Assembly (NCBI GenBank): GCA_040095065.1
Contig: JBBNGO010000019.1
Span: forward strand, 9,517 to 41,516
Source of the DNA: Hominicoprocola fusiformis
GTDB taxonomy: Bacteria > Bacillota > Clostridia > Oscillospirales > Oscillospiraceae
DNA length: 32,000 nt
Direction of reading: 5' to 3'
Position numbers and translations under genes: made by a program. This document shows positions 13,007-28,813 of this stretch, piece by piece. Position 1 is the stretch's first letter. Each line of letters begins with the position of its first letter. Below the pieces are notes generated by a model. The model did no database searches and was not told the DNA's origin. It worked only from the letters and a program-made list of their open reading frames with translations.

Positions 13007-13017
13007 TCTCGTCAAAA

Positions 13018-13138: not shown

Positions 13139-13173
13139 ATTATAAACGATGTTGAATGCAAGCAAGCGAAAGG

Positions 13174-13395
13174 ATGGTTGCCGTGCGCATAAGCTATAAG
13201 AAACTATGGATGCTTCTTCTGGAACGCGACATAAAGAAGGCTTCTCTACGACATGAAGTAGGGCTGTCTGCCGGAACATGGACAAAACTGAATAAGGGGG
13301 AAGAAGTGTCCCTCTCTATTTTGCTGCGCATTTGTGATTACTTGAACTGTGACATCGGAGATATATGTGAGGCTGTGCGAACGGACAAGAACTGA
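13174..13395 (+). CDS. Small XRE-type helix-turn-helix protein at the head of the R-M operon
   Basis: RISYKKLWMLLLERDIKKASLRHEVGLSAGTWTKLNKGEEVSLSILLRICDYLNCDIGDICE is the short HTH family. The true start may be GTG 13183, which has better spacing from AAAGGA. Confidence 0.8.
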   Translation: MVAVRISYKKLWMLLLERDIKKASLRHEVGLSAGTWTKLNKGEEVSLSILLRICDYLNCDIGDICEAVRTDKN

Positions 13396-13464
13396 GTCCG
13401 GTTTTTCGTACAGCTCTTTTTGTAGAATAGTAAGTGTGAAACTATAACTTTGGAGGTTGCTGAA

Positions 13465-14967
13465 ATGGCTGAAAATAACACAAGCAATATCGGCTTTGAA
13501 AAACAAATCTGGGATGCGGCTTGCGTCCTGCGCGGAAACATCGACGCATCCGAATATAAGTCGGTCGTTCTCGGACTGATTTTCCTGAAATACATTTCAG
13601 ATCGCTTTGAGGCAAAGTACAAGGAGCTGGTTGAAGAAGGCGATGGATTTGAAGAAGACCAGGACGAATACACTGCCGAAAACATCTTCTTTGTCCCTGA
13701 GAATGCACGATGGAGCGCGATTGCTGCTGCCGCTCATACGCCGGAAATTGGCACGGTGATTGATGATGCAATGCGCAGTATTGAGAAAGAAAACAAGCGT
13801 CTCAAAGATATTCTTCCTAAGAACTTCGCCCGTCCAGAGCTGGACAAGCGGCGTCTTGGTGAAGTGGTTGATCTCTTCACCAATATTCAGATGATCGAGC
13901 ATGGAAACAGCAAGGACATTCTTGGTCGCACATACGAATATTGCCTCTCCAAGTTTGCCGAGCAAGAAGGCAAACTTGCCGGTGAGTTCTATACTCCCTC
14001 TTGCGTTGTGCGTACCCTTGTTGAAGTGTTGCAGCCGTTTAATGGGCGTGTTTATGACCCGTGCTGCGGCTCTGGCGGTATGTTTGTTCAGTCCGCAAAG
14101 TTCATCGAAAATCACGGCGGCAACATCAACAAGATTTCTGTTTTTGGTCAGGACTCTAACCCGACCACATGGAAGATGGCGCAGATGAATCTTGCCATTC
14201 GCGGTATTGAAGCCGACCTCGGCAAGTTTAATGCGGACACATTCTTTAACGATTGTCACCCGCAGCTCAAGGCAGACTTTATTATGGCGAATCCTCCCTT
14301 CAATCTTTCTGGCTGGGGTGCAGATAAACTCGTTGATGATGTCCGTTGGCAGTATGGTACGCCTCCTGCTGGAAATGCAAACTTCGCGTGGTTGCAGCAC
14401 ATGATCTGGCATCTCGCTCCGAATGGACGTATCGGTATGGTGCTTGCAAATGGTTCGCTTTCTTCGCAGTCCGGCGGTGAAGGTGAAATCCGCAAGAACA
14501 TTATCAATGCTGACCTTGTGGACTGTATCGTTGCAATGCCGACGCAGCTATTCTACACGACGCAGATTCCGGTATCGCTCTGGTTCCTTGCAAAGAACAA
14601 GAAGCAAAAAGGCAAAACGCTGTTCATCGACGCACGGAAACTCGGCACTATGGTTACGCGGAAGCTGCGCGAACTGACGGATGAAGACATCAAGAAAATT
14701 GCCGACACTTATAATGCCTTCGGTGATGGAACACTCGAAGATGAAAAGGGCTTCTGTGCTGTTGTCACTACACAGGACATTGCAAAGCAGGATTACATTC
14801 TCACTCCGGGACGCTATGTTGGTATTGAGGAACAGGAAGATGACGGCGAGCCGTTTGAAGAGAAAATGGGGCGTTTGACTTCTGAACTTTCTGAGCTCTT
14901 CGCAAAGTCCCATGAACTTGAGACGCAGATCAAAGAACGACTGGGGGCGATTGGATATGGGCTATGA
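13465..14967 (+). CDS. hsdM: Type I restriction-modification system, DNA methyltransferase subunit M
   Basis: N-terminus is IGFEKQIWDAACVLRGNIDASEYKSVVLGLIFLKYISDRF. Other motifs are FYTP, the SAM motif DPCCGSGGM and the catalytic NPPF (FIMANPPFN). ATG 13465 follows GGAGG. Confidence 0.95.
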   Translation: MAENNTSNIGFEKQIWDAACVLRGNIDASEYKSVVLGLIFLKYISDRFEAKYKELVEEGDGFEEDQDEYTAENIFFVPENARWSAIAAAAHTPEIGTVIDDAMRSIEKENKRLKDILPKNFARPELDKRRLGEVVDLFTNIQMIEHGNSKDILGRTYEYCLSKFAEQEGKLAGEFYTPSCVVRTLVEVLQPFNGRVYDPCCGSGGMFVQSAKFIENHGGNINKISVFGQDSNPTTWKMAQMNLAIRGIEADLGKFNADTFFNDCHPQLKADFIMANPPFNLSGWGADKLVDDVRWQYGTPPAGNANFAWLQHMIWHLAPNGRIGMVLANGSLSSQSGGEGEIRKNIINADLVDCIVAMPTQLFYTTQIPVSLWFLAKNKKQKGKTLFIDARKLGTMVTRKLRELTDEDIKKIADTYNAFGDGTLEDEKGFCAVVTTQDIAKQDYILTPGRYVGIEEQEDDGEPFEEKMGRLTSELSELFAKSHELETQIKERLGAIGYGL

Positions 14968-15520
14968 AACGTATCGTATTGCTGACCTAATTGATGAAAT
15001 TGCGATGGGTCCATTCGGATCAAATATTAAAGTCTCGTGTTTTGTGGATAGTGGCGTACCTGTCCTAAATGGTAGTAATCTTGAGGGCTTTTCTCTATCC
15101 GAAAAGACATTCCGCTATGTCACAAGGAAAAAAGCTGACTCTCTTAACAAGGCAAATGCACATCGCGGGGATATTGTAATAACACACAGAGGAACGCTTG
15201 GGCAAATAGTGTTTATTCCTCAAGATTCAAAATATGACCGGTATGTGATTTCGCAATCTCAGTTTAGGGTGCGATGCAACGACAAGGTTTTGCCCGAATA
15301 CCTTGTCTATTACTTCCACACTCCAATAGGACAGCATAAACTTCTAAGCAATGCCTCACAGGTTGGCGTCCCTGCATTGGCGAGACCATCTTCGACCTTT
15401 CAACAGATTGAGGTCGTATTGCCTGAATTAAGTATTCAGAAATGTGTTGTCGAGATTATTTCCACAATCCAAAAAAAGATTGTGAACAATCAAGAGCTAA
15501 ACGATAATTTAGCAGCTTAG
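14957..15520 (+). CDS. hsdS: Type I R-M specificity subunit, half-size (single TRD 'A1', ends ...NDNLAA*)
   Basis: MGYETYRIADLIDEIAMGPFGSNIK...PALARPSS...LPELSIQKCVVEIISTIQKKIVNNQELNDNLAA. There is one target-recognition domain, then the central conserved helix, truncated 2 codons after the 15-bp core repeat. The start overlaps the hsdM end by 11 nt. Confidence 0.85.
   Translation: MGYETYRIADLIDEIAMGPFGSNIKVSCFVDSGVPVLNGSNLEGFSLSEKTFRYVTRKKADSLNKANAHRGDIVITHRGTLGQIVFIPQDSKYDRYVISQSQFRVRCNDKVLPEYLVYYFHTPIGQHKLLSNASQVGVPALARPSSTFQQIEVVLPELSIQKCVVEIISTIQKKIVNNQELNDNLAA
15498..15512 (+). repeat. Shufflon core repeat copy a (TAAACGATAATTTAG)
   Basis: Exact 15-mer encoding (L)NDNL at the end of half hsdS A1. 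It is followed by CAGC, then TTA (reverse complement of the stop of cassette B2). Confidence 0.85.
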
Positions 15521-16203
15521 AGCTGGACAGCAGACACATCGATCTCGCCAGACATCAGTTTGGGCAGCAAATTATCTCTCAATGTCGCAAGCGATTGATT
15601 CTGCTCTTCCAAAATACGTTGCTGTGCAAAGATAGGAGCGCAAAAGTCGCTGAATTTGGCAAGAGTTTCAGCGTCAGGAATAACCGCCGGGACATTTTTC
15701 ATAGTGCTGCCAGATACTTCTTTGAATGTTGACCCGGATGCCATGCCTTCAATGACCGGGAGAGTGTTTTTCAAAAAGAAGTAAACAAATGGTGTTCCAA
15801 TTTCCGGCTTAGGCACAACCGATTTGAAACCTTGATTTGTTGTTACTTCACCAGCGGCGATAGCAATATAACCTATTGGCGCACGAGATGAGAACAACAC
15901 TGTTCCTTCTGGCATGATTGCTGCGCTGCTGTTCTTCAAACCAAGTTCAGTTATGTCATTCTCACCATGAGAAACGAACTTCGACTTGTTGATAGATAAA
16001 TCTTTCGGGGTTATCCATGCTATACCGGACTCCGTGTAATACTCAGGTTTAGCTTTTGAAGGTGTACTGCCTCCAACAACAGTACCAAGATCGCTAATTG
16101 TTCCGATAGCCCATTCTGGATCAGCATTATCAACAAATAATTCTTGAAAATAGGATTGAGCTTGCTGCTCTAAATTATCGTTTACCGTCTGAATAACTCT
16201 CAC
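15517..16203 (-). CDS. hsdS: Inverted hsdS half-cassette (TRD 'B2' plus C-terminal conserved region), apparently silent in this orientation
   Basis: Minus-strand translation is ...VNDNLEQQAQSYFQELFVDNADPEWAIGTISDLGTVVGGSTPSK...ITPKDL...LFSSRAPIGY...LATLRDNLLPKLMSGEIDVSAVQL*. It begins with the core repeat and lacks a TRD1. Only a GTG at 16203 could act as a start. The track extension to 16389 is antisense to the integrase 5' end. Confidence 0.8.
   Translation of the reverse strand: MRVIQTVNDNLEQQAQSYFQELFVDNADPEWAIGTISDLGTVVGGSTPSKAKPEYYTESGIAWITPKDLSINKSKFVSHGENDITELGLKNSSAAIMPEGTVLFSSRAPIGYIAIAAGEVTTNQGFKSVVPKPEIGTPFVYFFLKNTLPVIEGMASGSTFKEVSGSTMKNVPAVIPDAETLAKFSDFCAPIFAQQRILEEQNQSLATLRDNLLPKLMSGEIDVSAVQL
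16170..16184 (-). repeat. Shufflon core repeat copy b (inverted)
   Basis: CTAAATTATCGTTTA is the reverse complement of the core. The extended match to copy c is 25 nt with 1 mismatch (16160-16184 vs 17785-17809). Confidence 0.85.
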
Positions 16204-16273
16204 CAGTGGCGAGAGTTTTACAAAAGGGACTGCCACTGAATGTCGTTCTCTTACCTCGAAAGGAGACACGACA

Positions 16274-17257
16274 ATGACAGAACAACTCATCACGGAGATA
16301 CAGCGAAAAATGCTGCCGTATCTTAACAACGAACAACTCATGCACCTTCGGGATGCAATGGCTGAGACATTGGAAGGGGCAACGATCACCTATGATAGTG
16401 GCTCAATTCCAGCAGACGAAGCAGATGCAGTCGAAGCATTTATCACGGCAAAGCGGATCGAAGGCTGTTCGGAGAAAACCCTGAGCTACTACCGGAAGAC
16501 GATTGAGGCTCTAATTGCCGGAGTTGGAAAGGCTGTGCGACAGATCACCACAGATGATTTGCGCCGCTATCTGACAAACTATCAAGTTCAGCGCAGGTCG
16601 AGCAAAGTGACCATAGACAACATCCGCCGGATACTGTCCAGCTTCTTCTCATGGCTTGAAGATGAGGATTTCATTGTGAAAAGCCCGGTACGCCGTATTC
16701 ACAAAGTTAAGACTGCAAAGGTGGTCAAGGACACCTACACCGATGAAGTGTTAGAGCTGATGCGTGACAACTGCACAACAGCACGAGACTTGGCGATGAT
16801 TGATCTTCTGGCTTCCTCTGGAATGCGTGTTGGTGAGCTGGTCACACTAAACCGCGAAGACATCAACTTCAATGAGCGCGAATGCGTTGTTATCGGCAAG
16901 GGTAATAAAGAACGATTGGTCTATTTCGACGCAAGGACGAAAATCCACCTTCAAAACTACCTTGAGGGGCGAACGGATGAAAACCCAGCTTTGTTTGTTT
17001 CCCTGAAAGCTCCCTTTGACCGATTGATGATTGGCGGAGTGGAGACACGCCTTCGGGAGCTGGGAAAGCGTCTGAATATCCCGAAGGTTCACCCTCACAA
17101 GTTCAGGCGTACACTGGCTACAACTGCCATAGACAAAGGAATGCCCATAGAGCAAGTCCAGCAGCTCTTAGGGCATCAGAAAATCGACACCACCATGCAC
17201 TATGCAATGGTGAAGCAGCAGAATGTGAAGCTGGCACATAGAAAATACATCGGTTAG
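16274..17257 (+). CDS. Tyrosine site-specific recombinase (XerC/XerD-like) of the hsdS shufflon
   Basis: The catalytic set is readable: SSGMRVGEL (Arg), HPHKFRRTLAT (H-x-x-R) and LLGHQKIDTTMHYA (His...Tyr). There is an N-terminal SAM-like core-binding domain. AAGGAG RBS. The gene sits between hsdS cassettes. Confidence 0.92.
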   Translation: MTEQLITEIQRKMLPYLNNEQLMHLRDAMAETLEGATITYDSGSIPADEADAVEAFITAKRIEGCSEKTLSYYRKTIEALIAGVGKAVRQITTDDLRRYLTNYQVQRRSSKVTIDNIRRILSSFFSWLEDEDFIVKSPVRRIHKVKTAKVVKDTYTDEVLELMRDNCTTARDLAMIDLLASSGMRVGELVTLNREDINFNERECVVIGKGNKERLVYFDARTKIHLQNYLEGRTDENPALFVSLKAPFDRLMIGGVETRLRELGKRLNIPKVHPHKFRRTLATTAIDKGMPIEQVQQLLGHQKIDTTMHYAMVKQQNVKLAHRKYIG

Positions 17258-17258
17258 G

Positions 17259-18425
17259 ATGGTGGGTAGTATGAATGGAACAATATATATGCCCGTTGGT
17301 GAAGTTTGTTCGTCTATTTCGGACACTTATCGCGAAAAAAAGAATATGGTGACGCTTATCAATACCTCGGACGTTTTAGAGGGTAGAGTTCTCAACCACG
17401 AACGAGTTCCAAACTCCAATTTGAAAGGGCAGTTCAAGAAGACTTTTCAGCGAGACGATATTTTATATAGCGAGATCCGTCCACAGAACAGGCGGTTTGC
17501 CTATGTGGATTTTTCGCCCATAGACTATATCGCTTCAACTAAACTGATGGTAATTCGTGCAAAAAAGGATGTGGTATCTCCTAAGTACCTATACTATTTC
17601 TTGAAGAATAGTTCCACAGTTGCAGAACTTCAACTGTTAGCTGAAACGCGATCTGGCACATTCCCTCAGATTACATTTTCCGAAGTTGCCAATTTGACCA
17701 TACCCGTTCCTTCGCTTGCTGTACAAGAAGTTATCGTACAAACGATGCAATGCCTCGAAGATAAGATCACCTGCAACGAGCAGATAAACGATAATTTACA
17801 GCAGCAAGCAGCCGCATTGTTTTCAAGCCTCTATGATCGGTCAAACACCGAGGTTAGATTCACCGATTTGATACAGATACTCGGCGGTGGGACACCGAAA
17901 ACAGGCGAAAACACTTATTGGAACGGTAATATTGCCTTCTTTACCCCAAAAGATGTTGGCATACCATACACCCTTATCACAGAAAAGACTATCTCAAAAG
18001 AAGGCCTTTCACATTGTAACAGCCGACTGTATCCTGTGAACACCGTTTTCGTCACTGCAAGAGGCACTGTTGGTAAAGTTGGTATGTCCGGAGTTCCGAT
18101 GGCCATGAACCAATCCTGCTACGCGCTTGTCGGTAAAGAGACGCATCAACTTCTTGTATATTTCTACACACTCAAAGCTGTTGATAGGCTCAAGCACAAA
18201 GCAAGTGGAGCCGTATTTGATGCGATTACCACCAGAGATTTTGAATCAGAGCAAATCATGAAACTCTCTGATGATGATGCTACGGCGTTTCTCCGTGTTG
18301 CAGAACCCATGTTTCAGGAGGTACTTAACAACAACATCGAAAACTTGCGACTTTCAACACTACGGGATTCATTGCTACCTAAGCTCATGTCCGGCGAGAT
18401 TGATGTCTCCGCCGTCCAACTCTAA
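17259..18425 (+). CDS. hsdS: Type I R-M specificity subunit, full length (TRD 'C1' - NDNL core - TRD 'C2')
   Basis: TRD1 is followed by ...CNEQINDNLQQQAAALFSSLY. TRD2 is (GGGTPKTGENTYWNGNIAFFTPKDV...VTARGTVGKV), followed by ...LSTLRDSLLPKLMSGEIDVSAVQL*. The gene starts 1 nt after the recombinase stop. ATG 17271 is an alternative start. Confidence 0.9.
   Translation: MVGSMNGTIYMPVGEVCSSISDTYREKKNMVTLINTSDVLEGRVLNHERVPNSNLKGQFKKTFQRDDILYSEIRPQNRRFAYVDFSPIDYIASTKLMVIRAKKDVVSPKYLYYFLKNSSTVAELQLLAETRSGTFPQITFSEVANLTIPVPSLAVQEVIVQTMQCLEDKITCNEQINDNLQQQAAALFSSLYDRSNTEVRFTDLIQILGGGTPKTGENTYWNGNIAFFTPKDVGIPYTLITEKTISKEGLSHCNSRLYPVNTVFVTARGTVGKVGMSGVPMAMNQSCYALVGKETHQLLVYFYTLKAVDRLKHKASGAVFDAITTRDFESEQIMKLSDDDATAFLRVAEPMFQEVLNNNIENLRLSTLRDSLLPKLMSGEIDVSAVQL
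17785..17798 (+). repeat. Shufflon core repeat copy c (TAAACGATAATTTA, 14/15)
   Basis: Located in the central conserved region of full-length hsdS. Followed by C, then AGCAGCAAGC, which matches the flank of copy b. Confidence 0.85.
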
Positions 18426-18429
18426 GCCG

Positions 18430-18444
18430 CTAAATTATCGTTTA
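18430..18444 (-). repeat. Shufflon core repeat copy d (inverted, 4 nt after hsdS stop)
   Basis: CTAAATTATCGTTTA. With its flank it shares 17 nt with copy b (CTAAATTATCGTTTACC). Read on the reverse complement, it mirrors the copy a context: TAAACGATAATTTAGC[G/A]GCTTAGAG. Confidence 0.85.
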
Positions 18445-18464
18445 CCTGATTTGGAGGTTGTACC

Positions 18465-18824
18465 ATGTTTGATAAAGTTCAGGAGAGCTTGAAAAAAAGC
18501 AAAGACGAGCGCCAGAAAAAGCGTCTTGAAAAGGAACGGGTTCGTCTTGAGAAAGCCGCAGCAGAAGCAGTTCGTGAGAAAGAGCGGCTTCAACAGGAGG
18601 CGGAAAAGATACAGGCTGAAAAAGACCGTCTTCTCTCCCTCGATGATAAGGGGCTGATGGTAGAATTGATTCTGGCAGTGCGAGGTCTATACTCACAAAT
18701 GGAGTACATTCAAAGTCAGCAGGCTTCTTTATCCGAGCGGGTTGACGATATTGAGTCGGACATCTCTTCCATCCGCAGCGATATTTCAGATTTGGAAAGC
18801 AGACTGGGCTCGTCCGATCAGTAA
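18465..18824 (+). CDS. Hypothetical 119-aa coiled-coil protein
   Basis: GGAGG RBS. The protein is heptad-rich and charged (KKRLEKERVRLEKAAAEAVREKERLQQEAEKIQAEKDRL ... DDIESDISSIRSDISDLESRL). No enzymatic motif. Confidence 0.7.
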   Translation: MFDKVQESLKKSKDERQKKRLEKERVRLEKAAAEAVREKERLQQEAEKIQAEKDRLLSLDDKGLMVELILAVRGLYSQMEYIQSQQASLSERVDDIESDISSIRSDISDLESRLGSSDQ

Positions 18825-18847
18825 AACTCAATGAAGGAGGCGCAGAC

Positions 18848-20671
18848 GTGATTATTTCACCACAATCTCTTGATACAAACCTAAGTCAGCTTTTAGCGGA
18901 GGTTAAGTCCGGCTCAATGCAGTTGCCGGAGTTTCAGCGCGACTGGACTTGGGATGATAACCGAATTAGAGGAATTATCGCCAGTTTGTCGCAAGGCTAC
19001 CCTATGGGTGCCATTATGCGGCTACAATACGGTAATCCGGACATTCAATTCAAATACCGCACAATTACGGGCGTAAAAGGCGTCTCAGTAAAGCCGGAGC
19101 ATTTGATTCTTGATGGACAGCAGCGACTTACTTCCATCTATCAGGCAACATCCTCTAAAGAGCCGGTCTCGACCAAAACAGAAAAAGGCAAGGCTATTAA
19201 GCGTTATTACTATCTCTCAATGGAGAAGTGCCTTGACGATGATGAGGATCGTTTTGATGCAGTCTTGTCTATTCCGGAAGACCGCAAGATCAAAGAAAAC
19301 TTTGACCGTGATGTGAAGCTCGACCTCTCAACCAGAGAATATGAATACGAGAATAAGCTGTTCCCGGTCAATATTGTGTTCGATAGCAACGCCGTTATGG
19401 ACTGGTTCATGGGCTACATGACGCACTATGGAATGAAGCCGGAGGCAATGGACGAGTTCAAGCGTTTTCAGGCAGATGTGCTGAATACAATTTCCGGGTA
19501 TAAGCTGCCTGTGATTACGCTGGACAAGTCCACGCCGCGAGAGGCAGTGTGCAAGGTGTTTGAGAACGTCAATACCGGTGGTGTTCCTCTCACGGTGTTT
19601 GAGCTTGTTACCGCAACTTATGCCACAAGAGACTTTGACCTGAGAAAAGACTGGGTGCAGTGTCGAAATACAATTTGCGGTTTCGGTGACACGCTGAGAA
19701 CAGACCTGTTCGATGGGATTGATGAGACTACCTTCCTGACAACGGTTTGTCTCTATACAAGCTATTTGAACAAGCAGTCTGGAAAGACAAACACAATCTC
19801 CTGCAAAAAGAAAGATGTTCTGGGACTTCCTTATGAATCGTACATAGCGAACCGGGATGCAGTGCTGTCTGGGTTCAAAATCGCAAAGGAGTTTCTTCTT
19901 CGGGATCAGTGCGTTTTCCGTCAAAGAGATTTGCCCTATACAACGCAGTTGATTCCACTTGCGGCAATCTGCGCTGTTCTCGGAAAATCCAAATGCAATG
20001 AGCCAAACACAATCAAAACTCTTTCTCGGTGGTATTGGTGCGGGATTTTGGGTGAGATGTATGGCGGTGCGAACGAAACCCGCTATGCCTATGACATTGA
20101 GGACATGGTTGAAGAGGTCAATGGACGTCCGAATGCAATGCACACGATTAACAGCGCAGTCTTTTCTTCTACGCGGCTACTAACCCTTCAAACTCGCTTG
20201 AGCGCGGCATATAAAGGTATAATGGCTCTTCTTTACAAGGAGAAGTGTCGTGACTTTATGAACAACACGACGATTGACATTGTAAACAGTATGCTTGAGT
20301 CTCCGGATATTCACCATATATTCCCCGAAGCATATTGCGAGAAAATGGGCATCAAGCGCGAACGGTATAATTCCATCATTAACAAGACCCCGATTCTTCC
20401 AGCCACCAACCGCTCGATTGGCGGAAATGCGCCGAGTGAGTATCTGGGGGCAATTCTAAAGAAGGTTGATGGACTGACCGAGAATGAGTTGCAAGCACGG
20501 GTGGAATCGCACTTTATCAACTTTGCAGAATTGAAGGCAGATGACTTCAATGGCTATTTCATCGACAGAGCAAAAAGCCTTCTAAACCTAATTGAAAAAG
20601 CGATGAATAAGCCCGTCACTGACAGAGATGCAGAAAACACGTTGGATCAGTTCGGGGCGAGTCTGGCGTAA
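18848..20671 (+). CDS. DUF262 (ParB-like NTPase/nuclease) plus C-terminal DUF1524-like His-Me finger protein, GmrSD-like
   Basis: LPEFQRDWTWDDNRIRGIIASLSQGYPMG and ILDGQQRLTSIYQ are DUF262 DGQQR signatures. The C-terminus has DIHHIFPEAYC...NKTPILPATNRSIGGNAPSEY (HNH-like). GTG start lies 7 nt after AAGGAGG. Confidence 0.88.
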   Translation: MIISPQSLDTNLSQLLAEVKSGSMQLPEFQRDWTWDDNRIRGIIASLSQGYPMGAIMRLQYGNPDIQFKYRTITGVKGVSVKPEHLILDGQQRLTSIYQATSSKEPVSTKTEKGKAIKRYYYLSMEKCLDDDEDRFDAVLSIPEDRKIKENFDRDVKLDLSTREYEYENKLFPVNIVFDSNAVMDWFMGYMTHYGMKPEAMDEFKRFQADVLNTISGYKLPVITLDKSTPREAVCKVFENVNTGGVPLTVFELVTATYATRDFDLRKDWVQCRNTICGFGDTLRTDLFDGIDETTFLTTVCLYTSYLNKQSGKTNTISCKKKDVLGLPYESYIANRDAVLSGFKIAKEFLLRDQCVFRQRDLPYTTQLIPLAAICAVLGKSKCNEPNTIKTLSRWYWCGILGEMYGGANETRYAYDIEDMVEEVNGRPNAMHTINSAVFSSTRLLTLQTRLSAAYKGIMALLYKEKCRDFMNNTTIDIVNSMLESPDIHHIFPEAYCEKMGIKRERYNSIINKTPILPATNRSIGGNAPSEYLGAILKKVDGLTENELQARVESHFINFAELKADDFNGYFIDRAKSLLNLIEKAMNKPVTDRDAENTLDQFGASLA

Positions 20672-20687
20672 AAGGGAGTGACAAACT

Positions 20688-23600
20688 ATGGCAGGATATT
20701 TTACAGAATCAAATTACGAGAACGCTGTCTTGCAGCTTCTCAATGAAGAACTGGGCTATAACTATATCTATGGACCGGACGTGGAGCGCGATTATCACTC
20801 GCCGCTTTATGAGGATGTTCTGCTGCCTTCCTTGCAGCGGATCAACAAGAGCCTGCCTATGGACGCTCTGACGGAGGCAATCTATAAGCTCAAGAACTTT
20901 GAAACTGGAACGCTCTTGCAGAAGAACATGGTCTTTATGGACTACCTCCAAAACGGAGTCCCGGTAAAATACTATGACAAGGGTGAAGAACGCTCTACCC
21001 TTGTTTACCTTGTAGACTTCAAAAATCCTGCCAGTAACGAGTTCACAGTTGCGAATCAATGGACTTTCATTGAGAACTCCGAAAAAAGACCAGATGTGAT
21101 TCTCTTTGTCAATGGTCTCCCGCTCGTCATTGTGGAGTTGAAGTCTCCGTCCCGCGAAGAAACCGACGCTTCCGCAGCATACCGCCAGCTCCGGAACTAT
21201 ATGTATGAGATCCCCTCTATGTTCATTTATAATGCGGTATGTGTCATGAGCGACTTGACCACTTCAAAGGCTGGTACAATCACGTCCGGCGAAGACCGCT
21301 TTATGGAGTGGAAAACAACAGACGGCAGCTATGAGAATACGCAACACGCATCATTTGACACATTCTTTGTAGGACTGTTTGAGAAGACCCGCTTCCTTGA
21401 CATCGTGAAAAACTTCATCTGCTTTAATGTGGATGGACAGAATACATTCAAGATACTCGCTGGGTATCATCAGTATTTTGCAGTCAAAAAGGCGATTGAG
21501 TCTACGAAGCACGCGACTGTGACAGACGGCAAGGGCGGCGTCTTCTGGCATACACAGGGCAGCGGAAAATCGTTGTCTATGGTCTTCTATGCTCATTATC
21601 TGCAAGAAGCGTTAGAAAGCCCCACTATCGTTGTCATTACCGACCGTAACGATCTGGACGACCAGCTTTACGGACAATTCGCCCGCTGCAAGGACTTCCT
21701 CCGGCAAACGCCGCAGCACGCTGAGAGCCGCAAGAATCTGAAAGAACTGCTTGCAAACAGACAGGCAAACGGCATAATCTTCACGACCATGCAGAAGTTT
21801 GAAGAAAGCAACGAAGCTCTTTCGGAACGCCGGAACATTATCGTGATGGCTGATGAAGCGCATCGTGGGCAATATGGTCTCAATGAGAAGGTTGTGGTCA
21901 AGCAAAAGGACAACGGCGAAGTCGAGGCGAAAACCGTTATCGGCACTGCCCGCATTATAAGAGACACGCTTCCTAATGCGACCTACATTGGATTCACCGG
22001 AACACCGATCTCCACAAAAGATCGCAGCACACGAGAAGTCTTCGGTGATTACATCGACATCTATGATATGACACAGGCAGTTGAAGACGGAGCTACAAGA
22101 CCCGTCTATTACGAGAGCCGTGTGATTCACCTGAAACTCGACGAGAACACCCTCCATCTGATCGATAATGAGTATGATATTATGGCTGACAACGCCGATC
22201 CGTATGTCATTGAAAAGAGCAAAAAGGAACTTGGTCAGATGGAAGCAATCCTCGGTGCCGACCAGACGATCAATTCCTTGGTAAATGACATTCTTGATCA
22301 TTACGAGAATTACCGTGAGAATATCCTGACCGGCAAGGCGATGATCGTTGCTTATTCGCGTCCCATAGCAATGAAGATTTATAAGCGCATTCTTGAGCTA
22401 CGCCCAGCGTGGACGGAAAAGATTGCAGTGGTCATGACGCAAGGCAATAACGATCCCGAAGAATGGCGTGAGATTATCGGCAACAAAGCTCATAAGGACG
22501 ATATGGCGCGGAAATTCAAAGACAACAACTCTCCGCTGAAAATCGCCATCGTCGTGGATATGTGGCTGACCGGCTTTGATGTTCCCTCCCTTGCTACGAT
22601 GTATGTCTATAAGCCGATGGCTGGACACAACCTGATGCAAGCTATCGCCCGCGTCAATCGTGTCTTCAAAGATAAAGAAGGCGGTTTGGTTGTCGATTAC
22701 GTTGGTATTGCGGCTGCACTGAAACAGGCAATGAACGACTATACTGCCAGAGACAAGAAGAACTATGGTGATACAGATGTAAGCAAGGCTGCATATCCGA
22801 AGTTCCTTGAAAAGCTCTCTATTTGCAGAGATTTGTTCCACGGATTCAGTTATGAGAAATTCATGACCGGAAGCGACCTTGACAGGGCGAAGCTCATCAG
22901 CGGCGGAGTGAACTTCATACTCGGCAAGAGTGTTGCAGAGTACGAGCTTCCCGACCACGAGAAGACACAGAATGTGTTTATCAAAGAAGCCCTGCTTCTC
23001 AAGCAGGCACTTTCGCTGTGCAGCAGCTTGGTAGACGAGCAAACTCGCATGGAGGCAGCTTTCTTCGAGTCCGTAAGAACAATGACCGTGCGCTTGGTTT
23101 CAGGCGGTACCGGAAAGAAGTTTACGCTTCCGGAAGTAAATGAGCGCATTAACGAGCTTTTGAAGCACAGTATCAAAAGCGAAGGCGTTATCAACCTTTT
23201 CTCTGATGTCCAGACTGAGTTTTCGTTGTTCGATCCGAAGTTCCTTGAAGAAGTGGCAAACATGAAGGAGAAGAATCTTGCAGTCGAACTCCTGAAAAAA
23301 CTGATTTCCGAACAGGTCTCTGTTTACCGCCGAACAAATATCGTCAAGTCTGAGAAGTTCTCCGAAATCATTCAGAGCGCAATGAACCGCTATTTGAACG
23401 GAATGCTGACCAACGAGGAAGTCATTCAAGAATTACTCAAGCTGGCGAAAGACATTGCCGCTGCTGCCGCCGAGGGTGAAAAACTCGGATTGACAACGGA
23501 CGAACTTGCTTTCTATGATGCTCTGACGAAGCCGCAAGCAATCAAGGACTTTTACGAGCATGATGAGCTTATTGCTATCACGAAAGAACTGACAGATTTG

Positions 23601-23777
23601 CTTCGCAAAAACCAGACAATAGACTGGCAAAAGAAAGAGAGCGCAAGAGCAGGAATGCGCCGTCTTGTCAAAAGGCTGCTGAAAAAACACAAATATCCGC
23701 CTGAGGGTATGGATGATGCTGTCCAGACTGTCATGAGCCAGTGTGAGATGTGGACAGACAATGTAATGACCGCTTAA
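20688..23777 (+). CDS. hsdR: Type I restriction enzyme, R (endonuclease/translocase) subunit
   Basis: The N-terminal PD-(D/E)xK region is RPDVILFVNGLPLVIVELKS. Walker A is HTQGSGKSLSM and the DEAH box is MADEAHRGQ. Also present are FTGTPI, and LTGFDVPSL...QAIARVNR. Length is 1029 aa. Confidence 0.95.
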   Translation: MAGYFTESNYENAVLQLLNEELGYNYIYGPDVERDYHSPLYEDVLLPSLQRINKSLPMDALTEAIYKLKNFETGTLLQKNMVFMDYLQNGVPVKYYDKGEERSTLVYLVDFKNPASNEFTVANQWTFIENSEKRPDVILFVNGLPLVIVELKSPSREETDASAAYRQLRNYMYEIPSMFIYNAVCVMSDLTTSKAGTITSGEDRFMEWKTTDGSYENTQHASFDTFFVGLFEKTRFLDIVKNFICFNVDGQNTFKILAGYHQYFAVKKAIESTKHATVTDGKGGVFWHTQGSGKSLSMVFYAHYLQEALESPTIVVITDRNDLDDQLYGQFARCKDFLRQTPQHAESRKNLKELLANRQANGIIFTTMQKFEESNEALSERRNIIVMADEAHRGQYGLNEKVVVKQKDNGEVEAKTVIGTARIIRDTLPNATYIGFTGTPISTKDRSTREVFGDYIDIYDMTQAVEDGATRPVYYESRVIHLKLDENTLHLIDNEYDIMADNADPYVIEKSKKELGQMEAILGADQTINSLVNDILDHYENYRENILTGKAMIVAYSRPIAMKIYKRILELRPAWTEKIAVVMTQGNNDPEEWREIIGNKAHKDDMARKFKDNNSPLKIAIVVDMWLTGFDVPSLATMYVYKPMAGHNLMQAIARVNRVFKDKEGGLVVDYVGIAAALKQAMNDYTARDKKNYGDTDVSKAAYPKFLEKLSICRDLFHGFSYEKFMTGSDLDRAKLISGGVNFILGKSVAEYELPDHEKTQNVFIKEALLLKQALSLCSSLVDEQTRMEAAFFESVRTMTVRLVSGGTGKKFTLPEVNERINELLKHSIKSEGVINLFSDVQTEFSLFDPKFLEEVANMKEKNLAVELLKKLISEQVSVYRRTNIVKSEKFSEIIQSAMNRYLNGMLTNEEVIQELLKLAKDIAAAAAEGEKLGLTTDELAFYDALTKPQAIKDFYEHDELIAITKELTDLLRKNQTIDWQKKESARAGMRRLVKRLLKKHKYPPEGMDDAVQTVMSQCEMWTDNVMTA

Positions 23778-23802
23778 CTCCCCTACGAGAAAGGAGTAGA
23801 TC

Positions 23803-25194
23803 ATGGGCAATTCAGTCATGTTGAATGGCGTCGAATATGCCGGAGAACAGATTGCCTACAAAGACAGCACCTACGAGCTTGTATCGAAGGTTGCCTACCT
23901 GATCGGCGTCCCGCTCCGTATTTTTCAAAATGAACACGAGCCGCCGAAGATAGAGATATACAACCGGCTTGAGCAGGATAAAAATGCCCGAATTATCCGA
24001 AATCTATGTATCATCCGCACCGCCATCGAGCGCAACTACCGGAAAATAAATGACATCATGCGGATGGAGTATCGAGGGCTGCTTTCAATGCCAGAGATCA
24101 TCCCGGCTTCCAGTATGCAGCAGCTTTCAAACGACGGAATCAGCTTTATCAAAAAGTCGAGTACAAAGCTCTGCCACCACATTATCGAGATTAACCGGCT
24201 GATTTCAGACCGCATTAACAACTGCAAAAGCCTCTTTCCAATCTGGATTAACTGGACGTACATAAAAGAGCTGTTCATCATGCCAAACGGCTTGACAGAG
24301 GACGGAACGAAAGATGCTGCGGACATCTATTACGCAAGTCTCTCCTACTACCCCTATCAAATGTACATCAACTGGGTACCGATGGACGAGGGCAATGTCC
24401 TCTATAATGATAAGAAGTTTGCTACCCTGCTTTATCAATGGCATTGCGACGCCTTCACGGAATACAGTAAAGTCTCCGATGCAGGGGCTTTTGTAAAAAA
24501 CAATATCTACGACTTCATAGATGACAGTGAGAAGACCGTATTGGTAGTGGACTGCGAAAACTCTGACCCGTACAAGCTGTGCGCCACGCTCAAAAACCTT
24601 GATTATGAGGTCATGCAGAAAATTACGGCGATCATTCTCTTTGATGACGTACACACCGCTACGGCATGGCGGATTCTTGAAAACTACACCCGCATCCCCG
24701 TTGAACATATCATGATTGAGCGGATCAAGCAGAACAAATCACTGGTAGACATCAAGCTCACCGCAAGAGCCTGTCAGGAACACTACCAAAAGCAAGTGGA
24801 TTCCTTCGTCATCGTCTCAAGCGATTCCGACTACTGGGGGCTGATTTCTTCCTTACCGGACGCCAGATTCCTTGTCATGATTGAGCGGGAAAAATGCGGA
24901 CCGGATATGAAGGCAGCACTTGCAGAATCCGGGATATTCTACTGCTATCTGGATGACTTCTACTCCGGCAACAGCGAGGACATCAAGAAAAACGCACTGT
25001 TCAAGGAGATGTACCGCTGGATTGACAACTCCGTTCACCTGAACGTCAACGATATGTTTGATGCAGCTCTGCGAAACACCAGGATCGAAATGTCTCCCGC
25101 AGAGCGGCGGCAGTTCTATGAAAAGCACATCAGGCACATGACGCTGACTATCGACGAGAACGGAAACGTCAGCATTGAACTGAAACGCGGATAG
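23803..25194 (+). CDS. NYN/LabA-like (PIN-fold) nuclease domain protein with unknown ~240-aa N-terminal region
   Basis: The C-terminal half has VLVVDCENSD ... FVIVSSDSDYWGLISSLPD, the acidic NYN signatures. AAGGAG RBS lies 7 nt upstream. The gene starts 25 nt after the hsdR stop. Confidence 0.8.
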   Translation: MGNSVMLNGVEYAGEQIAYKDSTYELVSKVAYLIGVPLRIFQNEHEPPKIEIYNRLEQDKNARIIRNLCIIRTAIERNYRKINDIMRMEYRGLLSMPEIIPASSMQQLSNDGISFIKKSSTKLCHHIIEINRLISDRINNCKSLFPIWINWTYIKELFIMPNGLTEDGTKDAADIYYASLSYYPYQMYINWVPMDEGNVLYNDKKFATLLYQWHCDAFTEYSKVSDAGAFVKNNIYDFIDDSEKTVLVVDCENSDPYKLCATLKNLDYEVMQKITAIILFDDVHTATAWRILENYTRIPVEHIMIERIKQNKSLVDIKLTARACQEHYQKQVDSFVIVSSDSDYWGLISSLPDARFLVMIEREKCGPDMKAALAESGIFYCYLDDFYSGNSEDIKKNALFKEMYRWIDNSVHLNVNDMFDAALRNTRIEMSPAERRQFYEKHIRHMTLTIDENGNVSIELKRG

Positions 25195-25223
25195 CCTTGG
25201 TTTCTATTCCGGGAGGAATGTGG

Positions 25224-27272
25224 ATGGACAACAGATTCTATTTTGGATTCAATACATCGGAGGAACGGAAAAAGCGCAGAAAAGCAGAGCTGTACTCCAT
25301 GAGTGAGCAAGTCAGCACCTTCTTTTGGGATGAAGCCCCGCAGCATGGATTGGAAATGCGTGAGGGGCAGCAGGATATGTCTTTTGAGATTGTGGACGCC
25401 CTCATAAACGATCAGCATTTTGCGATTGAAGCTGGCGTGGGCATTGGCAAGTCCTTTGGCTATCTTGTGCCGGTGCTGCTGTACAGCAAACGCATGAATA
25501 AGCCGGTTATCATCGCAACCTCGACCATTGCGCTTCAAGAACAGCTCTGGCGCGATGTCCACGCGGTAATGCCCCTTCTTGGGCTGAACAGAGATGTCAT
25601 CCTCGCAAAAGGACAGACCCATTATCTCTGCAACAAACGCGCAGATGAGTATATGTGTGACCCGAAAGCAGACCCACCGGACGCGCTCAAAGAAGGAATC
25701 AAGCAAGGGTATGAGGAACGCAAGGATTTCCCGGAGGTTTTGCCGCAAGGCGTCTGGGACAAGGTAAACGTGCAGCGGTTCAGCATGAAGAATTGCGGCT
25801 CCTGTGAAAAGAAGTGCAAATATTACAAAGTCCGCGCAGCATTAAAGTTTACGGATGGAGTGGTACTGTGCAATCAGGATTTTCTAACCCAACATCTCAT
25901 GAAACTCCGGCGCGGTCAGGACGGGCTGATTAACGCCGCCGCTGATCTGCTTGTCGTGGATGAAGCGCACAACTTAGATGATAAGGTGCGTAGTGCTACA
26001 ACGGAACGTTTCGGACAGGGTATGCTCTTTGGGATGATCAAGAGTGCATTCTATGAGCTGCGGTCCTCTGACCAGAGCAGTGTGTCCGGTGAAAAGCGAG
26101 AGGCAGAGAGCGCGATCATCGCCTTCTATAACTGCCTGAAAGCGCAAGTCAAAAAGCAGATCAACGAGGCAGAACAGGATATGCGCTATGCTGACCGCTT
26201 TTTCTTCGACCAAAACGGCAGTGCGGTTGAGCTGCTTACCGAGATGAACGCCGCCATACATAACCTTTCGTCCAGCATTCAGATTTATTCCAGCATGGAT
26301 TTCAGAAACAACCGTTCCTTTGCTGCCTCTGACGATCTGGATGCGGTCAGCGAGTCCCTTTCGGAGCTTCTTGACCGGATAGATGATATGTTGATCTGGA
26401 TTGAGCAGCACGGCAGCAACACGGAACTTGTCTATTGCCCTAAAAACACAAGGGAAATTGTTAGCCGCCTATACTTCAATGGTGATGAAAGAACCATCTT
26501 GACCTCTGCCACGCTGACGAACGCCACGAGCGGGTCTCTGGAAGAACAGTATTCCTACTTTATCAGCAATACCGGCTTTCCGGTTGGTGAACGCGGCTGC
26601 TTATCCGAACCGAAGCCTTCCCCATATCCATACGATGAACACGCCATGATCTACTATTGCGACGATCTCCCGCACCCGACCAGAGAACATGAAGCCTTCA
26701 TTGAAAAGGGTGTGGAGCGACTGCTTGAGATCCTGAGCATTTCCAATGGAAAGGCACTCGTGCTGTTTACGGCAAAGACCGACATGGAAGAGGTCTACTC
26801 CATTCTCAGCGAGAAAAATCTTCCGTACAAAATCCTGATGCAACAGCCGGGATCGTCGCAGGACAAGGTGCTGAATGAGTTTAAGGAAGATACGAACTCC
26901 GTGCTTCTGGGGACGGGCGCATATTGGGAAGGTATCAGCATTGAAGGAAAAAGCCTTTCCAATGTGATCATTTTCCGGCTTCCGTTCCCTGTCCCCGATC
27001 CAATTATCGAGTATAAGTGTTCCGTCGCAAAGGACGCTCTGATGGATGTTCGCGTTCCCGAAATGATTATCAAACTCAAGCAAGGCATCGGGCGATTGAT
27101 CCGCAATTTCACAGACACCGGCATTGTCTGCATCATCGACCGAAGACTGCTGGATGAGCCGCCGGAACGCTATCATGACATTACATGGGACTCCCTGCCT
27201 ATCAAAAATCGGACAAGCAGTTTGGGCGAACTTAGGAAGTTTTACGAAGGTCTGCCCTCAGCCAAGGAATGA
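25224..27272 (+). CDS. DinG/XPD (Rad3)-family SF2 DNA helicase with Fe-S-type cysteine cluster
   Basis: REGQQDMSFEIV, Walker A EAGVGIGKSFGY, DEAH box LVVDEAHNLD. Cysteines between motifs I and II are YLCNKR, YMCDP and NCGSCEKKCKYY. The C-terminus has LLGTGAYWEGISIEG and motif VI QGIGRLIRN. ATG 25224 lies 6 nt after GGGAGGA. Confidence 0.9.
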   Translation: MDNRFYFGFNTSEERKKRRKAELYSMSEQVSTFFWDEAPQHGLEMREGQQDMSFEIVDALINDQHFAIEAGVGIGKSFGYLVPVLLYSKRMNKPVIIATSTIALQEQLWRDVHAVMPLLGLNRDVILAKGQTHYLCNKRADEYMCDPKADPPDALKEGIKQGYEERKDFPEVLPQGVWDKVNVQRFSMKNCGSCEKKCKYYKVRAALKFTDGVVLCNQDFLTQHLMKLRRGQDGLINAAADLLVVDEAHNLDDKVRSATTERFGQGMLFGMIKSAFYELRSSDQSSVSGEKREAESAIIAFYNCLKAQVKKQINEAEQDMRYADRFFFDQNGSAVELLTEMNAAIHNLSSSIQIYSSMDFRNNRSFAASDDLDAVSESLSELLDRIDDMLIWIEQHGSNTELVYCPKNTREIVSRLYFNGDERTILTSATLTNATSGSLEEQYSYFISNTGFPVGERGCLSEPKPSPYPYDEHAMIYYCDDLPHPTREHEAFIEKGVERLLEILSISNGKALVLFTAKTDMEEVYSILSEKNLPYKILMQQPGSSQDKVLNEFKEDTNSVLLGTGAYWEGISIEGKSLSNVIIFRLPFPVPDPIIEYKCSVAKDALMDVRVPEMIIKLKQGIGRLIRNFTDTGIVCIIDRRLLDEPPERYHDITWDSLPIKNRTSSLGELRKFYEGLPSAKE

Positions 27273-27349
27273 TGATACAAACGGCAGTCTCTTCGGAAAC
27301 ATAGAGCAACCCCCCCAAAAAAACGACAATCAGAAAACGGAGGTGTATC

Positions 27350-27961
27350 ATGTTGTACAATGAAAATCTGCACGAAGAAGAACAACATCTGATCCAGCAA
27401 ATTGCCGAGCAAACAGAGAGAGGAAAAATCGACTGGGAACTAACAGAGTACAATCCGCTGTCCTTTCTGAATGAGGACAAGATAGACAAGAACCCAGCAG
27501 TAATCTGTCAGTCCTTCTCCTTTGAGGCGATCATCGGCGGCTCCCGTTACGAGCTTGATGTCATGGAGAATATTGATGTGCCGTCCGGTATGGGAGACTA
27601 CACCATAACCTTGACACGGGATGAAACCGAAAATTATCTTAAAATTGAGGATGCGCTTTCCTTTGACTGTGACCGCTATGAATGCACACCGGAGGAAGTC
27701 GCAGAGCGATTTGCGGACAGCCCCATTGTCCGTCTCTGCAACGCCATCATTCCTGCCACGCTTGGGCAGGAGGATTTAGAAGAGGTCTTCACATGGGCAA
27801 GGTTTTTCAACGAGACTGGCATTTCTGCAAAGCTGATGAATCATCCACTGACCAAGCTCTGTGAAAAGCTGTTCGACGAACACCGTCTGATGGACTTCCA
27901 TCGCTGCGTCTTGGATGTGGGCTATCGAAAGCTGCTCCTAAATGAACTGGCTCATAACTAA
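27350..27961 (+). CDS. Hypothetical acidic 203-aa protein
   Basis: GGAGGTG RBS. The protein is D/E-rich (LHEEEQHLIQQIAEQTERGKIDWELTEYNPLSFLNEDKIDK...). It is the last gene before the strong terminator. Confidence 0.7.
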   Translation: MLYNENLHEEEQHLIQQIAEQTERGKIDWELTEYNPLSFLNEDKIDKNPAVICQSFSFEAIIGGSRYELDVMENIDVPSGMGDYTITLTRDETENYLKIEDALSFDCDRYECTPEEVAERFADSPIVRLCNAIIPATLGQEDLEEVFTWARFFNETGISAKLMNHPLTKLCEKLFDEHRLMDFHRCVLDVGYRKLLLNELAHN

Positions 27962-27971
27962 GACACGGAAA

Positions 27972-28014
27972 AACGCCCCCGACACTGTGCCAGACGCACA
28001 GTGCCGGGGGCGTT
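27972..28014. terminator. Strong GC-rich hairpin between convergent transcription units
   Basis: AACGCCCCCGACACTGTGC, 5-nt loop, GCACAGTGCCGGGGGCGTT (19-bp stem, 1 mismatch). On the minus strand it is followed by TTTTTCC; on the plus strand by TTCCCGTTTCC. Confidence 0.7.
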
Positions 28015-28237: not shown

Positions 28238-28813
28238 TTATTCCCGCGTGACATCAAGGGAAACCGGATTGATAACGATGATAGGTTTGCCCTTTTTGTG
28301 GGCATATCTCACGGTGTTCCCGGTACCGCTGGGGCATCCATTCCATACTGCGAGAATATAATCGGCGTGATCTACCATGTACCGATTTCTCTTGTCCATG
28401 CAGTCCGACGTGTACTCCCGTTGCAGCATGGTCTCCTTGTCACACTTTGCCGCGATATTATAATACCGTTCCCGTGAAGCCACAGACCATTTGATCGCTT
28501 GTGTCTCACAAGGGATTGCGCTTTCCAGAGTAATGTGAGGGTATTTTGATTTTAGATCGAGTACAATTTCCGCAGCATACATGTCGACGCCAAGAGCCAT
28601 GCCGGTAATAAAATGCGTGACGCCCTCGTTCTCGATGAGTGCTACAATCTGATCCCGCATAACAGATTTCAAAGAAGTACAACGCTTATCGGATTCATCA
28701 AAGCCGAACGGAAGACTCTGCGGTCTATGACCGGTAAACGCACAAGTCTTGCCTTGAACGGATTGCTTTGCAGCTTTTTGAGCAGACTTTCTAAACTCAA
28801 TAATGCGCGACAT
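28238..28813 (-). CDS. SLOG-family / DUF1273 (YpsA-like) protein
   Basis: GKTCAFTGHRPQSLPFGFDE...THFITGMALGVDMYAAEIVL...LESAIPCETQ...ADYILAVWNG.PSGTGNTVRYA is the DUF1273 signature (TGHRP). Confidence 0.85.
   Translation of the reverse strand: MSRIIEFRKSAQKAAKQSVQGKTCAFTGHRPQSLPFGFDESDKRCTSLKSVMRDQIVALIENEGVTHFITGMALGVDMYAAEIVLDLKSKYPHITLESAIPCETQAIKWSVASRERYYNIAAKCDKETMLQREYTSDCMDKRNRYMVDHADYILAVWNGCPSGTGNTVRYAHKKGKPIIVINPVSLDVTRE

Follow-up and report, generated by a model that had tools for sequence, protein, structure and literature searches.

Three adjacent genes that encode an NYN-domain protein (g1), a DinG-type helicase (g2), and a small acidic protein (g3) lie within a 32,000-nucleotide stretch of DNA from Hominicoprocola fusiformis (contig JBBNGO010000019.1; hereafter the window, whose own numbering is used throughout unless a locus is named). 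The gene content of the window indicates that the carrier of this trio is an A-type Tn1549-family integrative and conjugative element (ICE) of gut Clostridia. We favor the view, at a probability of roughly 0.4, that the trio forms an accessory cassette for nucleic-acid processing in such ICEs, and that it serves the element rather than the restriction-modification (R-M) genes that stand beside it. An earlier reading of the sequence (the original prediction) had described the same genes as a candidate defense module, linked to hsdR and situated at the end of an R-M operon.

The relationship between the trio and its R-M neighbor is best seen in ICE copies that carry an empty site. In three such copies (L106, L020, and L192), mobC, the relaxase gene, and a 79-aa helix-turn-helix (HTH) gene are followed by NYN, DinG, and g3 in that order, and the spacer between the HTH and NYN genes measures 70 nt. 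With L106 (Vescimonas fastidiosa pMM35_01) as the empty-site reference, window positions 12887-13429 align with L106 12001-12543 at 97% identity, and positions 23771-23923 align with L106 12549-12700 at 91%. Between the aligned flanks, nothing that matches 13430-23770 is present in L106, L020, or L192. These alignments identify 13430-23770 as an insertion in the HTH-NYN spacer; no obvious direct or inverted repeats flank its junctions at 13429/13430 and 23770/23771. A second type I R-M system, whose hsdR is only 32% identical, is located within ~20 bp of the same insertion point in L009 and L013, and in other copies BREX genes, or McrBC plus hsdR, stand directly upstream of the trio at junctions that were not mapped. 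Flanks long enough to be read were available for 46 metagenomic copies; 5´ of the trio, 21 of these have the window-type hsdR, 19 the other hsdR, five a BREX gene, and one something else.

Because the trio is present at the empty site and beside varied cargo (a second type I R-M system, BREX, McrBC), its linkage to hsdR is incidental. The R-M block is a 10.3-kb cargo inserted between the HTH and NYN genes, and the descriptions 'hsdR-linked' and 'end of an R-M operon' must both be given up. Conversely, the original prediction had proposed looking for synteny independent of hsdR, and this is what the other ICE copies reveal. On the strength of these alignments, we conclude that the HTH-NYN spacer is a hot spot for cargo insertion and that the trio lies on its constant side. 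The possibility that its products are components or accessory subunits of the type I R-M system was rejected, given the R-M-free copies and those in which the trio adjoins BREX or McrBC.

We rank an element-serving role first because the trio occupies the invariant flank of the hot spot and is co-directional with the mobC-relaxase-HTH genes, and because NYN orthologs are found largely in non-defense contexts. Furthermore, the nearest solo DinG adjoins translesion-synthesis genes, and the ICE too carries a Y-family polymerase (IMS) with its YolD-like partner, SIMPL, AlkZ-related, and Macro-domain genes. Finally, the other flank of the trio consists of DNA-processing and anti-restriction genes. 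With moderate confidence, we infer a biochemistry in which a 5´-to-3´ iron-sulfur (Fe-S) helicase would work with a metal-dependent NYN nuclease specific to single strands, and in which the acidic protein would be their adaptor or regulator. Specifically, the DinG-type helicase would translocate 5´ to 3´ and unwind DNA duplexes, forks, or RNA:DNA hybrids, as do DinG and YoaA of Escherichia coli. Unwinding would expose single strands, which the PIN-like NYN nuclease could then cut. The acidic and quickly diverging g3 protein might tune or target the helicase-nuclease pair, whether as adaptor, regulator, or inhibitor. The cassette could thereby process or repair DNA or RNA of the element itself in connection with transfer, replication, and DNA damage.

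The domain content of g1 and its conserved acidic pocket indicate that it is an NYN (PIN-like) nuclease. Pfam NYN (PF01936) covers residues 254-353 (E 1e-6; 29.6 bits versus a gathering cut-off of 24.2), and residues D250, E252, N253, D333, S340, D341, and D343 do not vary among 92 aligned homologs with 51-86% identity. The NYN gene of L087 has an internal stop, and that of L081 was taken instead to widen this alignment. An AlphaFold2 (AF2) model with a predicted local distance difference test (pLDDT) score of 86 consists of an all-helical N-terminal domain (residues ~20-240), a Rossmann-like NYN core (~245-385), and a C-terminal unit of three helices and a β-hairpin (~389-459). When this model was searched with Foldseek, only the NYN part was matched, by the LabA-like structure 2qip (E 2e-4) and the NYN domain of MARF1 (5yaa). 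A profile of the whole protein yielded nothing significant among PDB sequences, and the N-terminal ~240 aa are blank in Pfam even at E ≤ 1. The original prediction had pointed both to acidic signatures of the NYN/PIN fold and to some 240 preceding residues with no recognized motif, and it was right on both counts.

Similarly, the sequence of g2 identifies it as a DinG/YoaA/XPD-family helicase of superfamily 2 (SF2), with a predicted 4Fe-4S cluster in helicase domain 1. Helicase_C_2 (PF13307, E 9e-34), DEAD_2 (PF06733), and DEAD (PF00270) all score above their Pfam cut-offs. The Walker A, DEAH, and motif VI sequences (AGVGIGKS, VDEAHNL, and QGIGRLIR) are intact and invariant in five homologs, as the earlier claim of intact helicase motifs would have it. 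Four cysteines (C136, C191, C194, and C198, numbered from the ATG at 25224) are invariant among homologs with 60-100% identity. The Fe-S cysteine cluster noted earlier thus stands in these four positions, whereas C145, the cysteine of the 'YMCDP' segment that had been counted in it, is variable. The best NCBIfam model for g2 is YoaA, at 319.9 bits versus an equivalog cut-off of 680, and the DinG models PRK08074 (268 versus 789 bits) and PRK11747 (226 versus 598 bits) also fall short. Assignment of g2 as the YoaA or DinG equivalog, or ortholog of the E. coli protein, was rejected on these scores. The best PDB match is 8zef, titled '3'-5' exonuclease DinG', and the PHROG match is DNA-helicase family 2488. 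In PADLOC, g2 matches only generic 'typeIV_DinG' profiles (best E 9e-90) and, marginally, DrmD.

The third protein, g3, has an isoelectric point of 4.46 and a net charge of -23, in keeping with its earlier description as strongly acidic. It belongs to a small protein family and has zero matches in Pfam, NCBIfam, PHROGs, and PADLOC. An AF2 model (pLDDT 77) shows a single long helix, an antiparallel sheet of five strands, and a bundle of helices; with this model Foldseek found nothing significant in PDB or BFVD, and a profile search of g3 against PDB sequences likewise found nothing. Three small proteins encoded near family members were rejected as g3 homologs: a 211-aa protein after a prophage NYN, a 212-aa protein after BrxL, and a 218-aa SIMPL protein after a solo DinG. 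Separately, g3 domains occur as fusions with an XRE-type HTH_3 domain (P0343), with an HTH_17-like protein (P0336), and with an N-terminal zinc-ribbon-like CxxC...CxxC segment (P0318). These fusions suggest that the g3 domain could provide DNA-binding regulators with a sensor or effector function.

The open reading frame (ORF) coordinates agree with the original account of three same-strand genes that follow hsdR at gaps of 25, 29, and 77 nt. The longest ORF for g2 opens at a TTG (25197). The start is likely the ATG at 25224, because a ribosome-binding site (GGGAGGA, 25211-25217) ends 7 nt before it and the N-termini of homologs align from that methionine. No terminator-like site was detected on the plus strand between 23777 and 27972, again as first described, and the first such structure is the GC-rich hairpin at the end of the trio. 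This hairpin has 18 bp with one mismatch and a folding energy of -42 kcal/mol (z = -8.2 versus shuffled sequences). The better U-tract of the hairpin is the one on the minus strand, which suggests that it is a shared or bidirectional terminator that separates two convergent transcription units. Within the 3´ end of hsdR, ~280 nt 5´ of g1, a promoter-like site (TTGACA-18-TATGAT, 23490-23519) is near-consensus, matching the sigma-70-type consensus at 11 of 12 positions. From such a site, the trio could be transcribed without relying on the R-M insertion.

Two moderately diverged copies of the trio (dS ~0.35) yield ratios of nonsynonymous to synonymous substitution (dN/dS) of 0.04 for NYN, 0.06 for DinG, and 0.35 for g3. 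These values indicate that all three genes are real and under purifying selection. The protein encoded by g3 evolves six to nine times faster than NYN and DinG. Across lineages its identity falls through 75, 67, 52, and 37%, as compared with 91, 91, 68, and 73% for NYN and 89, 89, 75, and 70% for DinG.

The three genes recur together in two orders, NYN-DinG-g3 (the window, L091, and L094) and DinG-NYN-g3 (L001-L006, L088, and L199), with inter-gene gaps of 11-77 nt in both. Each order has its own clade in the NYN tree, and the two clades are interleaved with partnerless NYN genes. That the trio has been kept in diverged ICE lineages and in two orders argues for functional coupling. Among metagenomic g3 loci with at least 3.6 kb of upstream flank, NYN and DinG lie upstream in 61 of 63. 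The two exceptions are L120 and L160 (1-8000), in which the place of NYN and DinG is taken by a transposase resembling the IS30 family and by a type I R-M system in inverted orientation; the lone g3 next to YpsA in these loci is apparently a rearrangement remnant. A 35%-identical g3 is also found directly 3´ of NYN in a different mobile genetic element (MGE), together with WYL, LexA-like, PemK, and serine-recombinase genes.

Each gene can also be found alone. Neither DinG nor g3 occurs within 10 kb of NYN in ~50 of 64 dereplicated loci (orthologs with 54-86% identity); DinG is present in five of the 64 and g3 in four. In ~10 Clostridia species, NYN orthologs with 54-57% identity are embedded in a vertically inherited chromosomal synteny of dapA, dapB, ypsA, a sigma70-family gene, NYN, and NUDIX (L074-L087; for example, L074 6558-11350), close to queA, miaA, and a gene for a class I tRNA synthetase. 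Solo NYN genes lie beside other housekeeping genes in L007 and L100. In sister ICEs, NYN directly follows the relaxase gene and precedes a type I R-M system, and in a prophage replication module it accompanies PolA, VapE, VRR_NUC, and SNF2. In the prophage-like replication module of L096-L099 (7546-10046), NYN is situated between a PemK-family toxin gene and a 211-aa ORF, which is followed by HNH and ParB-methylase genes. YpsA flanks both chromosomal and ICE-borne NYN genes, which hints at a possible functional link between the two. Only 14 of 66 dereplicated loci have a YpsA-like gene at a distance of 7 kb or less from NYN, so this pairing is neither universal nor defining. Regarding the other components, a 61%-identical DinG free of NYN and g3 adjoins Y-family polymerase, S24-peptidase, SIMPL, and WYL-WCX genes. 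Relatives of g3 with 30-45% identity and neither partner include one near orphan C5 methylase and NikA-relaxase genes, one beside an Exo_endo_phos nuclease gene, and one that is solo.

Thus, the three-gene module of the original prediction survives as a recurring, tight, same-strand set, whereas the idea of an obligate unit is weakened because each gene is also found alone. One might go further and propose that the trio is not a unit at all. NYN would then be an autonomous gene, common in Clostridia and their MGEs. DinG, accompanied or not by g3, would be an accessory helicase for repair in its own right, and the three would be neighbors by history. The independent occurrence of each gene would be expected in this case, as would the result that clustering of NYN neighborhoods yields no universal partner. 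However, g3 relatives with at least 35% identity adjoin NYN wherever flanks exist, two independent orders and two NYN lineages keep the same families at gaps of 11-77 nt, and an internal terminator was not found. We regard this reading as improbable.

The trio is widespread. More than 10,000 sequences belong to one 90%-identity cluster of g3, and copies with 98-100% identity are found in more than 10 genera of gut Clostridia. A scan of the JGI metagenome collection with alignment A2, which returned near-identical copies only, gave 374 g3 relatives; the best 80 are 99-100% identical, and their record titles are largely those of human-gut assemblies. Fragments of NYN and DinG with 99-100% identity also occur on short contigs assigned to a Paratractidigestivibacter bin (L011) and an Alistipes communis bin (L023). 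These actinobacterial and Bacteroidota bins most likely contain mis-binned ICE sequence rather than reflecting cross-phylum carriage.

Several observations weigh against the proposal that the cassette serves its element. Several sister ICEs (L029, L044, L046, L043, and L052) retain NYN but lack both DinG and g3. These two genes are therefore dispensable for transfer, a pattern that fits cargo equally well. The nearest upstream neighbors of the trio are nearly always defense systems, and the dN/dS of g3, 0.35 versus 0.04-0.06 for its partners, is what one would expect of an arms-race component. NYN domains are best known as RNases, which makes a DNA-repair role for the NYN-DinG pair speculative. 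In addition, neither the N-terminal domain of g1 nor any part of g3 has recognizable fold relatives in the searches made.

Some of the same observations would be explained if the trio were an undescribed defense system carried as ICE cargo, a reading that we consider somewhat less likely than the element-serving role, and its close second. DinG would load on phage or plasmid DNA, or on R-loops, and feed NYN, while g3 would act as a sensor or specificity subunit, such that the host, and with it the ICE, is protected from competitors. A helicase, a nuclease, and a small partner are typical of defense systems, and this set lies in an ICE variable region beside type I R-M, BREX, McrBC, and GmrSD-like cargo. 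DinG and g3 are patchy among related ICEs, g3 diverges six- to ninefold faster than its partners, and the combination has been maintained despite shuffled order and different NYN lineages. DinG/XPD-like 5´-to-3´ helicases are effectors in type IV-A CRISPR systems, and g2 scores 300 bits on the PADLOC profile 'typeIV_DinG associated'.

Several points speak against this defensive function. The adjacency to defense genes stems from a single hot spot, of which the trio is the invariant flank that is present even at the empty site. Among the loci compared, the trio was seen only in Tn1549-type ICEs and one other MGE, and never in a chromosomal defense island. NYN orthologs with up to 81-86% identity are solo, and the family has a conserved housekeeping synteny. 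Moreover, g1 and g3 lack PADLOC matches, and the NYN protein HEC-09, whose model does not include g1, gave no phage protection. We judge it less likely than not, even if worth serious attention, that the trio is a new three-component immune system spread by human-gut Tn1549-family ICEs to exclude phages or rival plasmids and ICEs, with g3 as its invader-sensing or specificity subunit.

Alternatively, the trio might act in the recipient as a counter-defense or establishment module. The helicase-nuclease pair would dismantle intermediates of host interference, such as R-loops of CRISPR RNA and DNA, retron RNAs, or guide RNAs, or g3 would be an acidic DNA mimic, either of which would complement ArdA and ArdC. 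DinG is known to unwind R-loops, and g3 is both acidic (isoelectric point 4.5) and quick to diverge. A block of YpsA/DprA-like, ArdA, TTRAP, MutS_I, and ArdC genes lies beside the trio in every copy, and a 30%-identical g3 is located among the orphan C5 methylase, Toprim/DUF3991, DUF5688, and NikA-relaxase genes of another conjugative element. Nevertheless, the trio is encoded on the strand opposite to this anti-restriction block, convergent with it and co-directional with the relaxase gene. The g3 model resembles neither ArdA nor Ocr, nor any structure in PDB or BFVD, and solo chromosomal NYN genes are hard to square with a dedicated anti-defense enzyme. We give this possibility little weight.

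The assignment of the carrier rests on a PF03432 relaxase and NikA/MobC that are convergent with a block running from ArdA through TopB to CD1107-like genes; VirB4 and VirD4 lie outside the window. By its published definition, the Tn1549 family has a MOBP7 relaxase with PF03432 and MobC, convergent with a backbone of TopB and type IV secretion system (T4SS) genes (PMC12084326). The earlier placement of the trio on a mobile element can thus be made specific. The mobC and relaxase genes open a co-directional gene string that ends with the trio (Table 1). The 79-aa HTH gene is its native upstream neighbor and a candidate regulator. On the opposite side, the minus-strand block in the window includes the YpsA-SLOG gene and an ArdA-DUF3846-LPD18 polyvalent protein gene, to which the downstream blocks of relatives add TTRAP, MutS_I, an ArdC polyvalent protein, TopB, and CD1107-like T4SS genes. 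In the ICE copies compared, YpsA (DprA-like), ArdA and ArdC polyvalent proteins, MutS_I, and TopB are always found downstream of the trio.

Table 1. Features of the window, given in window coordinates.
Feature	Coordinates	Strand	Remarks
AlkZ-related glycosylase	3265-3951		within damage-related cargo run
Macro-domain protein	5120-6211		within damage-related cargo run
Y-family polymerase IMS	7772-9280		with YolD-like partner
YolD-like partner	9277-9699
SIMPL/DUF541	10457-11116		within damage-related cargo run
mobC/NikA-like relaxosome gene	11298-11681	+	Pfam NikA-like/MobC
MOBP-type relaxase	11642-13006	+	Pfam Relaxase PF03432; RefSeq annotation of 97-98% identical Vescimonas copy
Cro/C1-type HTH gene	13156-13395	+	79 aa; Pfam HTH_26 E 2e-19; 98.7% identical to HTH of L106
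Cargo insertion	13430-23770	+	10.3 kb; hsdM, invertible hsdS shufflon and tyrosine recombinase, GmrSD-like gene, hsdR
Methylase_S ORF	14912-15520	+
Methylase_S ORF	15517-16389	-
Tyrosine recombinase	16274-17257
Methylase_S ORF	17259-18425	+
Acidic coiled-coil ORF	18465-18824		119 aa; just before GmrSD_N gene
GmrSD_N protein	18848-20671		607 aa; PADLOC PDC-M55C / HEC-05 / BrxU-like matches
hsdR	20688-23777	+	directly upstream of trio
g1 (NYN)	23803-25194	+	463 aa; 25 nt after hsdR stop
g2 (DinG-type helicase)	25224-27272	+	682 aa; gap of 29 nt to g1
g3 (acidic protein)	27350-27961	+	203 aa; gap of 77 nt to g2
GC-rich hairpin	27972-28014	none	between trio and convergent YpsA gene; likely bidirectional terminator
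YpsA/SLOG (DprA-like) gene	28238-28813	-	Pfam YpsA; convergent with trio; constant ICE neighbor

Within the inserted cargo, three Methylase_S ORFs and a tyrosine recombinase gene are accompanied by inverted repeats, one 97 nt long with 78% complementarity and one 25 nt long with 96%. Two of the hsdS copies share an identical C-terminal peptide, and the hsdS block is inverted in L093 relative to L091 and L092. By these features, the region 14912-18425 is a predicted phase-variable type I specificity locus. The 119-aa ORF and the GmrSD_N gene lie between hsdS and hsdR, and hence a type IV restriction-like gene is nested in the type I operon.

Upstream of mobC, a run of cargo related to DNA damage or genotoxins extends from 3265 to 11116. 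The Vescimonas ICE copy has, in addition, a ClbS/DfsB-family gene. The homolog of the IMS polymerase is called 'DNA methylase' in RefSeq, by appearance a misannotation. The region 1032-2077 encodes a repressor-like protein with HTH_3/HTH_19, capH-like by PADLOC, and after it a capP-like protein of the Peptidase_M78/IrrE type. The two form an ImmR/ImmA-type pair that probably regulates the ICE or its cargo.

A conserved helicase-nuclease cassette on a very widespread ICE is a concrete target for study whichever role holds. If the cassette functions in transfer or repair, it would represent new accessory functions for Tn1549-family elements, which also carry vanB vancomycin resistance. If it is defensive, it would add a DinG-based system that helps to explain the competitive success of these ICEs and, as an immune system, would employ a DinG-type helicase as its interference motor without CRISPR. 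The HTH-NYN hot spot, which collects R-M, BREX, and McrBC systems, should be useful for mining further cargo. The significance of the trio is raised by how abundant it is in the human gut and by the tidy architecture of the hot spot, and is lowered by the separability of its components.

As the original prediction supposed, the trio corresponds to no named system, judged by the models of PADLOC-DB v2 (zero profiles for g1 and g3 at E ≤ 0.01, and for g2 only DinG and marginal DrmD). RefSeq names the products 'NYN domain-containing protein / ATP-dependent DNA helicase / hypothetical protein', and no description of an NYN+DinG system was found in the literature searched. Parts of it nonetheless resemble established systems. 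Type IV-A CRISPR systems also place a DinG-family helicase, CasDinG (Csf4), on a mobile element, and the PADLOC typeIV_DinG profiles match g2. A type IV CRISPR system was rejected, since PADLOC found no Csf1, Csf2, Csf3, or Csf5 among 16 window proteins, its DinG profiles being the only Cas matches, and neither an array nor an Rfam match was present. On the TIGR03117 cas_csf4 model, g2 scores 115 bits versus a cut-off of 400. Hachiman, Gabija, Nhi, Hna, Mokosh, and DdmDE share with the trio the logic of helicase plus nuclease and a location in MGE variable regions, a likeness by analogy only; they employ other helicase and nuclease families, and none of their PADLOC models matched at E ≤ 0.01, the marginal DrmD match of g2 aside.

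The NYN fold of g1, with its conserved acidic pocket, is shared with HEC-09, LabA, and MARF1. HEC-09, the only published single-gene NYN candidate, showed no phage protection in reported tests. Like g1, it carries its NYN domain at the C-terminus, behind a non-catalytic N-terminal domain, and HEC-09 is embedded among defense genes. Unlike HEC-09, g1 has a helical N-terminal domain of ~240 aa and belongs to a family that is largely chromosomal or solo. Its identification as HEC-09 was rejected because no PADLOC HEC model matched (E ≤ 0.01).

The variable regions of the Tn1549 family provide a positional counterpart, as they occupy the same region between the convergent mobC-relaxase pair and the backbone, with ArdA/ArdC polyvalent proteins alongside. 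Their published contents are polyvalent proteins, methylases, and dyad proteins, and the terms 'NYN' and 'DinG' are absent from the main text of that account (PMC12084326).

With DinG, YoaA, and XPD, g2 shares the SF2 motifs, DEAD_2 and Helicase_C_2 domains, and a four-cysteine insertion between motifs Ia and II. It differs from E. coli YoaA, to which it is ~27% identical, in being borne by an MGE rather than by the core chromosome, and no partner like chi (HolC) was recognized. Fusions of a DnaQ exonuclease to DinG in Firmicutes are a known pairing of a DinG-type helicase with a nuclease. In the trio, the nuclease is a separate NYN protein instead of a DnaQ domain, and an acidic partner is added. 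RadC, too, has been described in fusions with DinG/RAD3-like helicases, where it takes a position equivalent to that of other nucleases (PMC5512222). Together, NYN, DinG, and g3 join these arrangements as a previously undescribed cassette on a common gut ICE, and as a new variant of the helicase-nuclease pairing.

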